Of a stretch of 4,716 nucleotides of DNA, positions 3,570 through 4,716 are shown piece after piece (the first letter of the stretch is position 1; the number at the start of each line of letters is the position of its first letter). The DNA comes from a virus (lineage: Duplodnaviria > Heunggongvirae > Uroviricota > Caudoviricetes). Where the stretch lies: the IMG/VR virus record IMGVR_UViG_2695420897_000007. One strand, 5' to 3'. The notes beneath the pieces were generated by a model. That model did no database searches and was not told where the DNA came from. It saw only the letters and a list, made by a program, of their open reading frames with translations. The position numbers and the translations under genes are program-made.

Positions 3570-4716
3570 ATGGCAGTAAAGATTTCAGGTGTACTGAAAG
3601 GCGGCACAGGAAAACCGGTACAGAACTGCACAATCCAGCTGAAAGCAAAACGTAACAGCACCACGGTGGTGGTGAACACCCTGGCCTCAGAAAATCCGGA
3701 TGAAGCCGGGCGTTACAGCATGGACGTTGAGTACGGTCAGTACAGCGTTATTCTGTTGGTGGAAGGATTCCCGCCGTCACATGCCGGGACCATCACCGTG
3801 TATGAAGATTCTCAACCGGGGACGCTGAATGATTTTCTCGGTGCCATGTCGGAGGATGACGTCCGGCCGGAGGCACTGCGTCGTTTTGAACTGATGGTGG
3901 AAGAAGCGGCGCGTCACGCTGAGGAGGCGAAGAAGAATGCCGGAGAGGCGGAGACGTCCGCGAGGAATGCTGGCATATCAGCCAGTCAGGCAGAAGAGAG
4001 CGCTGCAAATGCTGACACTTCAGCAGGGGATGCATCGGAGTCAGCCCGGCAGGCGGCAGAAAGTGCAGCCTCAGCAAAGCAGTCAGAGGATGCGTCCTCG
4101 TCCTCGGCCTCTGCGGCCGCTCAAAAAGCCAGTGAGTCATTACAAAGTGCAACAGATGCTGAGTTGTCAAAAAAGATGGCAGAAAGTGCAGCCGGTAATG
4201 CAGCCAGGGATGCAACGACCGCAACAGAAAAAGCCCGGGAGTCAGCAGAAAGCGCACAGTCAGCGGAACAAAGCAGGATAGCGGCGGAAGAGGCCGTAAA
4301 CCGAATCCCCACCGTGGTGGGACCTCCCGGGCCAAAGGGGGAACAGGGGCCCGCGGGTCCTCAGGGGCCGAAGGGTGATAAGGGAGAGCGCGGTGACACC
4401 GGCCCTGTCGGGGCAACCGGCGAACGGGGACCGGCAGGTGATGCTGGTCCGGCAGGCCCGCAGGGGCCGAAAGGTGACAGGGGAGAGCGGGGAGAGACCG
4501 GTCTGACGGGAAATGCAGGTCCACAGGGTCCAAAGGGAGATACCGGTGCGGCAGGCCCGGCAGGCCCACAGGGACCGAAAGGAGAAACAGGTGCGGCTGG
4601 CCCGGTGGGGGCAACCGGACCTCAGGGACCGAAGGGCGACCCGGGGGAGACACAAATCCGTTTTCGTCTGGGGCCGGCGAGCATTATTGAGACAAACAGC
4701 AATGGCTGGTTCCCGG
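3570..4716 (+). CDS. stf: Side tail fibre protein Stf, 3'-partial; N-terminal tail-attachment domain, Ala/Ser/Glu-rich stalk, collagen-like G-X-Y domain
   Basis: Not in the ORF track because no stop occurs before the window end. Hand translation from ATG 3570 (frame 3) gives 382 sense codons with no stop through 4715: MAVKISGVLKGGTGKPVQNCTIQLKAKRNSTTVVVNTLASENPDEAGRYSMDVEYGQYSVILLVEGFPPSHAGTITVYEDSQPGTLNDFLGAMSEDDVRPEALRRFELMVEEAARHAEEAKKNAGEAE... The first ~110 aa match the conserved N-terminus of lambda Stf and its E. coli prophage paralogues as I recall them. A GGGGTG purine-rich stretch lies just upstream of the ATG. Confidence 0.88.
   Translation, partial: MAVKISGVLKGGTGKPVQNCTIQLKAKRNSTTVVVNTLASENPDEAGRYSMDVEYGQYSVILLVEGFPPSHAGTITVYEDSQPGTLNDFLGAMSEDDVRPEALRRFELMVEEAARHAEEAKKNAGEAETSARNAGISASQAEESAANADTSAGDASESARQAAESAASAKQSEDASSSSASAAAQKASESLQSATDAELSKKMAESAAGNAARDATTATEKARESAESAQSAEQSRIAAEEAVNRIPTVVGPPGPKGEQGPAGPQGPKGDKGERGDTGPVGATGERGPAGDAGPAGPQGPKGDRGERGETGLTGNAGPQGPKGDTGAAGPAGPQGPKGETGAAGPVGATGPQGPKGDPGETQIRFRLGPASIIETNSNGWFP
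3900..4319 (+). repeat. Low-complexity Ala/Ser/Glu-rich stalk region inside stf
   Basis: The translation is dominated by A, S, E, with motifs such as AESAA, SAESA and ASESA recurring (…AEEAKKNAGEAETSARNAGISASQAEESAANADTSAGDASESARQAAESAASAKQSEDASSSSASAAAQKASESLQSATDAELSKKMAESAAGNAARDATTATEKARESAESAQSAEQSRIAAEEAVNRI…). An exact 16-nt direct repeat ggcagaaagtgcagcc occurs at 4055-4070 and 4178-4193. Confidence 0.7.
4320..4652 (+). repeat. Collagen-like triple-helix repeat tract (37 consecutive Gly-X-Y triplets) inside stf
   Basis: Translation GPPGPKGEQGPAGPQGPKGDKGERGDTGPVGATGERGPAGDAGPAGPQGPKGDRGERGETGLTGNAGPQGPKGDTGAAGPAGPQGPKGETGAAGPVGATGPQGPKGDPGET has Gly at every third position for 111 residues without interruption. 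The sub-motif GPQGPKG(D/E) recurs 5 times, with imperfect 21-nt DNA repeats (e.g. cctcaggggccgaagggtgat, ccgcaggggccgaaaggtgac, ccacagggaccgaaaggagaa). Confidence 0.88.

Follow-up and report, generated by a model that had tools for sequence, protein, structure and literature searches.

The window, by which we mean the whole stretch of 4,716 nt analyzed here, carries J, lom and a tail fibre gene in the order found at the lambda stf locus. Its features are as follows.

1..2838, plus strand: tail tip protein J, C-terminal 945 codons (Pfam Phage-tail_3, Ig_J, Ig_J_second, Phage_Tail_Tip and Ig_GpJ_C)
2857-2876, plus strand: terminator-like hairpin after J
2906..3505, plus strand: lom, complete (PF06316, 396 bits)
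3532..3559, plus strand: intrinsic-terminator-like hairpin (3532-3553) and T-run after lom, ending 11 nt before ATG 3570
3561..3564, plus strand: weak Shine-Dalgarno-like GGGG, 5 nt 5' of ATG 3570, as read from the sequence
3570..4716, plus strand: 5' part of an EPclA-type side tail fibre gene (1147 nt, 382 of 437 expected codons), cut at the window end
3570..3968, plus strand: PfN domain (PF08400), aa 1-133, comprising a β-sandwich collar (aa 1-~91), a linker and the start of a helical bundle
3969..4319, plus strand: PCoil region, aa 134-250 (117 aa), a low-complexity, Ala/Ser/Glu-rich, presumably trimeric coiled-coil stalk
4320..4652, plus strand: collagen domain, aa 251-361, with 37 Gly-X-Y triplets without interruption (PF01391, 66 bits)
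4515..4605, plus strand: 45-nt tandem duplication (period 45, 2.0 copies, score 133)
4656..4716, plus strand: start of the PfC domain (PF06820), aa 363-382, with 20 residues visible and the rest past the window end

The first 2388 nt of J in the window are 95% identical to lambda J, while the last 179 residues (J C-terminus, window 2299-2838), which form the receptor-binding domain, are only 51% identical to lambda. A specificity module has been exchanged here, so that LamB is probably not used by the central fibre in lambda's manner. Lom is 46% identical to lambda Lom and sequence-identical in many EHEC prophages; the exact protein occurs in 1949 index blocks, with at most 98.4% identity to the whole window among the 10 matches listed. 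It is flanked on both sides by hairpins (2857-2876 and 3532-3553), which is consistent with an independently expressed moron. The second of these hairpins has an 8-bp stem with seven G-C pairs followed by TTTTTT, and from lambda biology, late, Q-antiterminated transcription would be expected to read through it and its T-run (3532..3559). A scan of 2700-4716 for sigma-70 promoters returned nothing, which is consistent with late-operon read-through and proves nothing, and the window has no Rfam match at the gathering threshold.

From ATG 3570, a plus-strand frame runs through 382 codons to the window end without a stop (translation of 3570-4716). Base composition does not explain such a length: when the 1147 nt were shuffled 2000 times at the mononucleotide level, the longest stretch without a stop was 117 codons on average and 260 at most. 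The ATG lies exactly where lambda orf-401 is annotated to begin and where RefSeq begins the gene in relatives, and the GGGG at 3561..3564 is equivalent in location to the orf-401 start region; an in-frame GTG at 3564, two codons 5' of the ATG, is chosen by no annotation. The frame is absent from the ORF track since the ORF lister reports no frame that is cut by the window end; in the fibre region it therefore returned just three overlapping ORFs, at 3793..4653 (minus), 4260..4655 (minus) and 3937..4281 (plus). None of the three has a Pfam match, and we reject them as genes; they are artefacts of composition, produced by the GC-rich collagen sequence and the Ala-rich sequence. The first-pass annotation had dismissed precisely these ORFs as spurious in favor of an uninterrupted frame from ATG 3570, and both statements hold. 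It was also fair to say that the largest gene is absent from the ORF track, in which J is listed from an internal GTG and lom in full. A comparable case occurs in the lambda reference record, where the antisense 'orf206b' (L003 5148-5768, i.e. lambda 20147-20767, minus) lies inside orf-401; it is probably a composition-driven antisense ORF like the two minus-strand ORFs in the window.

The fragment encodes a modular protein, which matches PHROG tail fibre families with up to 463 bits. Its N-terminus matches PF08400 (Prophage tail fibre N-terminal) over residues 1-133 (profile 1-133 of 134, 226 bits, E=1.7e-67, cut-off 26.6). Residues 134-250 contain 36 Ala, 23 Ser and 14 Glu (31%, 20% and 12% of 117 aa), as compared with 32%, 19% and 13% in the PCoil region described by Ghosh et al. 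(PMC3368898); by composition and location, they correspond to the EPclA PCoil, an Ala/Ser/Glu-rich segment of ~116 aa. The following residues, 251-361, form one uninterrupted collagen domain of 111 aa, as is typical of EPclA, with Pro in 18 of the 37 X positions. Within it, the tandem duplication at 4515..4605 encodes two 15-aa collagen units, GPQGPKG[D/E]TGAAGP[A/V]. A third copy of the 45-nt unit is present in two relatives, L004 and L013 (7610-7700), and extends their fibres to 452 aa and 42 triplets; repeat slippage thus changes the length of the collagen domain in steps of five triplets. At the window end, the visible part of PfC matches profile positions 1-20 of 64 of PF06820 with 31.5 bits (cut-off 25), and relatives with 99.9% identity in the part covered by the window have the complete domain at aa 363-426 (122 bits). 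[quoted passage not shown] The Pf2 repeat family, PF03406, is absent from the Pfam matches of both the window fragment and a 437-aa relative.

The N-terminal part of this protein is closely related to lambda Stf. BLASTP against lambda orf-401 yields 75% identity over 160 aa (E=4e-80), and 86 of the 93 residues of the lambda collar domain are identical in the window fibre. Residues 1-93 also match the 94-aa 'Tail fiber protein' chains of PDB entries 9E7M and 9MGH (E=2.2e-52), which represent the Ur-lambda tail tip and Stf collar (PMC12617516). In Ur-lambda, the gpV/gpM junction is surrounded by a collar of twelve Stf N-terminal domains, each trimeric fibre is connected by linkers to three of them, and the collar β4-β5 loop touches gpV E63 and gpM K2, W6 and R80 (PMC12617516). 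M and V lie outside the window; the most closely related prophage has a gpM with 100% identity to that of lambda, and therefore K2, W6 and R80 are kept and the docking site is conserved there. A lambda-type collar domain is present at the N-terminus of the window fibre, and by homology it probably docks at the gpV/gpM junction as well.

Should the gene, then, be regarded as a lambda-type Stf, that is, as a Tfa-assisted, OmpC-binding fibre that contains Pf2 repeats and a gp37-like distal domain and has a length of ~770 aa? Its locus position is shared with lambda stf, and its N-terminal 117 residues are about 89% identical to orf-401. However, the DNA match to lambda stops after 350 nt, past about residue 117-160 only low-complexity matches to orf-401 are found, and a collagen domain and the start of PfC follow in the window instead. 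The combination of Pf2 repeats with a shaft homologous to lambda residues 102-525, which marks a lambda-type Stf, is not found in this fibre. Only the tail-docking N-terminal domain is thus shared: the likeness to (Ur-)lambda Stf (P03764; orf-401 plus orf-314 in PaPa) covers the collar domain, the linker and the first part of the trimeric helical bundle, along with the genomic position and a presumed role as an accessory adsorption fibre. While lambda Stf continues with a long coiled coil, a hinge and a gp37-like distal domain whose tip binds OmpC, the window fibre has a collagen triple helix and, in place of the tip, the PfC knob. The two also differ in length, with 774 aa in Ur-lambda Stf and 437 aa in the relatives of the window gene.

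The first-pass annotation had called the gene stf. What stands is that a real, intact-looking fibre gene with a recognizable lambdoid Stf N-terminus, as borne out by the PF08400 and BLASTP matches, occupies the stf position after J and lom; what falls is the lambda-type identity beyond about residue 117, as the collagen domain at 251-361 had been overlooked. The remark that stf of lambda PaPa is split into orf-401 and orf-314 agrees with the lambda record and with PMC12617516. That no frameshift is visible in the 1147 nt is true yet uninformative, because the lambda PaPa frameshift region has no counterpart in the window fibre gene.

Instead, the window gene is a collagen-containing, EPclA-type side tail fibre gene, an ordinary and already described one. 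It differs by one mismatch in 1147 nt (99.9% identity) from the gene for WP_000279086, a 437-aa protein of E. coli O103:H2 12009. The encoded fragment is identical in 370 of its 382 aa (97%) to VT1-Sakai H0004, which we take, by locus, to be the EPclA protein ECs2941 of prophage Sp15 (Table 2 of Ghosh et al.). With the EPclA proteins ECs2717, ECs2941/VT1-Sakai H0004 and Z0982, the window fibre shares an identical domain order with identical boundaries, the locus after J and lom and, as expected from its nearest relatives, a length of 437 aa. It differs from them in a private D11G change and otherwise by normal allelic variation; its last 55 codons lie outside the window. The EPclA architecture, PfN-PCoil-Col-PfC with a Col domain of 111 aa in the 437-aa proteins, was characterized by Ghosh et al. 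(2012, PLoS One 7:e37872; PMC3368898), who list copies of 437 aa for the majority of the lambdoid prophages in the E. coli O157:H7 strains Sakai and EDL933. The PfN and PfC cloning primers of that study (PMC3368898) match window 3570-3587 and 4656-4674 exactly.

The gene is also widespread. Of 5426 complete E. coli genomes, 718 contain its EPclA-specific segment (3930-4716), at a median of nine places per genome, the lom-PfN junction is found in 4323 complete E. coli genomes, and the lom-fibre segment (3400-4716) has 389 matching records in the phage collection, mostly of Stx-converting phages. In RefSeq, the gene is labeled 'prophage tail fiber N-terminal domain-containing protein'. A more distant relative is EPclB (L0121 of Stx2 phage 933W, ECs1228 of Sp5), to which the VT1-Sakai annotation records a similarity. 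EPclB likewise contains PfN, PCoil, collagen and PfC modules, but it is podovirus-borne, has 645 aa and features two collagen domains with a Pf2 repeat between them. It is the 'tail spike' of short-tailed Stx phages, for which YaeT/BamA has been proposed as the receptor (Ghosh et al., PMC3368898).

The window's own DNA ends at 4716, and the layout downstream is taken from relatives. In all relatives with 98.4-100% identity over the segment, the fibre gene stops 167 nt (55 codons) past the equivalent of the window end, which gives 437 aa, or 452 aa in two exceptions. This nearby stop marks where a short fibre naturally ends and is no lesion, and by comparison with these sequences the window's own copy is presumably complete. 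Two nucleotides after the fibre stop, every close relative has an 89-aa ORF preceded by AGGAG (L002 10885-11154). Apart from a 27-residue, Cys-containing N-terminal tail, its product consists of a single PF06820 domain (123 bits), which shares 38% identity with PfC of the fibre; we found no papers on this PfC-only ORF in the literature. The fibre and the 89-aa protein might act as a two-gene module, in which the latter would cap the distal knob, enter mixed trimers or serve as a chaperone; we offer this as a speculation that is rather unlikely to hold. If true, the 89-aa protein could stand in for the lost Tfa and perhaps modulate receptor specificity.

A terminator-like hairpin, seen by eye, follows the 89-aa ORF in a relative, and in the closest relatives the type III effector genes nleB2, nleC (fragment), nleH and cif come next (L002 11331-14883; L014 4402-6787). 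Whereas lambda-type stf genes have a functional tfa (PF02413) downstream, the relatives of the window gene do not: those with 99.9-100% identity over the segment, in which the fibre ends at 437 aa, contain only 37-43-codon tfa remnants lying among the T3SS effector genes. The embedded 37-codon remnant suggests an insertion of cargo into a former tfa region. In VT1-Sakai, attR is located within about 1.1 kb of the fibre stop, and no tfa is annotated before it. With the stop at 437 aa, the 89-aa ORF, the effectors and a mere tfa fragment, the single long ORF followed by tfa that the first-pass annotation had predicted is therefore not seen in the relatives. Given both the fibre sequence and this downstream region, we regard a lambda-type Stf as extremely improbable.

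A different objection is that the frame, although open in the window, might belong to a decaying pseudogene in a defective prophage and no longer yield a functional fibre. Such genes are present in multiple copies in EHEC genomes (median of nine), many of these prophages are defective, and Ghosh et al. (PMC3368898) list some EPclA copies with frame-shifts and loss of the reading frame. In the relatives L004, L006, L007 and L013, IS insertions break J or its flanks, and J of VT1-Sakai is annotated as mutation-truncated. The window copy itself has the private D11G change, an A-to-G substitution at window 3601 in codon 11, within the collar domain. Lambda and VT1-Sakai have Asp11, as do all complete E. 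coli genomes in the collection, where the best match has one mismatch in 201 nt and none has Gly11; exact-pattern scans with a 60-mer likewise found no copy of the Gly11 variant in IMG/VR or the JGI metagenomes. D11G is thus either a private variant or a sequencing error. Against decay, the frame continues for 382 codons without stop or frameshift, J (945 aa visible) and lom are intact in the window, and the substitutions relative to paralogues are biased to third codon positions. For instance, the comparison with the paralogous gene of L006 gives 8, 14 and 45 differences at codon positions 1, 2 and 3, and 40 synonymous and 24 non-synonymous codon changes. On balance, a pseudogene appears unlikely.

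A further question is whether the bacterium rather than the virion is the main beneficiary, with the protein acting, for example, as a collagen-like adhesin or in immune evasion in the manner of streptococcal Scl. The protein is encoded between lom, which specifies a lysogen-expressed, virulence-associated outer-membrane protein, and T3SS effector cargo, and it has sub-threshold matches to models of the collagen-like adhesins SclA, SclB and Lcl; Ghosh et al. (PMC3368898) left the matter undecided. These NCBIfam matches, however, cover the Gly-X-Y region only and reach 85.7 bits against a cut-off of 325. We have rejected SclA, SclB and Lcl, as well as TolA, as family assignments, since all are far below their cut-offs and limited to repeat regions. 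The Gram-positive collagen-like proteins, such as Scl1/Scl2 of Streptococcus pyogenes and BclA of Bacillus anthracis, do resemble the window fibre in their unhydroxylated Gly-X-Y helix rich in charged residues and in the nucleation of the triple helix by a globular trimerization domain, but they carry signal and anchor sequences, reside on the cell surface or in the exosporium and have unrelated non-collagen domains. In the window fibre, the N-terminus is instead a virion collar domain, in which no signal peptide or anchor is evident by eye. Moreover, a terminator separates lom from the fibre gene, and expression evidence is tied to phage induction (Ghosh et al., PMC3368898). A mainly bacterial role therefore strikes us as scarcely plausible.

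We consider it very likely that the product of 3570-4716 is an EPclA-type, trimeric side fibre of a lambda-like siphovirus prophage of the EHEC type, of whose roughly 437 residues the first 382 are encoded here. By homology, its N-terminal β-sandwich (aa 1-~91) would dock on the tail as in Ur-lambda, with twelve copies encircling the tail as a collar where the last gpV ring meets the gpM ring. Each trimeric fibre would arise, via short linkers, from three of these domains, resulting in four fibres per virion. The shaft would consist of a trimeric, Ala/Ser-rich α-helical coiled coil (aa ~100-250), which a flexible hinge may connect to the 37-triplet collagen triple helix (aa 251-361). PfC (aa 363-426, mostly past the window) is predicted to trimerize and to nucleate the zipping of the collagen helix from the C- to the N-terminus; as the distal knob, it presumably touches the bacterial surface and speeds or broadens adsorption.

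Much of this picture derives from recombinant EPclA (rEPclA). Biophysical work that included circular dichroism and electron microscopy showed rEPclA to be a stable trimer with a collagen triple helix and an α-helical coiled coil, shaped as a dumbbell about 50 nm long in which the coiled coil is hinged to the collagen helix (PMC3368898). PfC and PCoil are independent trimerization modules, PfC re-nucleates the collagen helix after melting, and rEPclA folds as a soluble trimer when it is produced by itself in a laboratory strain (PMC3368898). Given its 97% identity to VT1-Sakai H0004, the window fibre can be expected to form the same trimer, triple helix and coiled coil. The soluble trimer obtained from rEPclA alone and the trimerization by PfC and PCoil further suggest that a Tfa chaperone is unnecessary; the fibre would probably fold without it also in vivo, because PfC self-trimerizes. 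Such independence fits the loss or decay of tfa in these prophages. We found no reports in the literature of an EPclA fibre on a virion or of a receptor for its PfC knob; published micrographs of EHEC phages are too coarse to show side fibres (Ghosh et al., PMC3368898).

For a gene that is known, experimentally characterized and present in multiple copies in EHEC prophages, the importance of this finding is small beyond the correct annotation: the label should read EPclA-type collagen-like side tail fibre rather than lambda stf, and no weight should be given to the antisense ORFs that overlap the gene. At the same time, a module boundary at about residue 117 and a 45-nt repeat that alters collagen length illustrate how fibres diversify by recombination and slippage. 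EPclA fibres belong to the adsorption apparatus of Stx-converting, effector-carrying lambdoid phages, and their receptor bears on the spread of virulence genes between E. coli strains.
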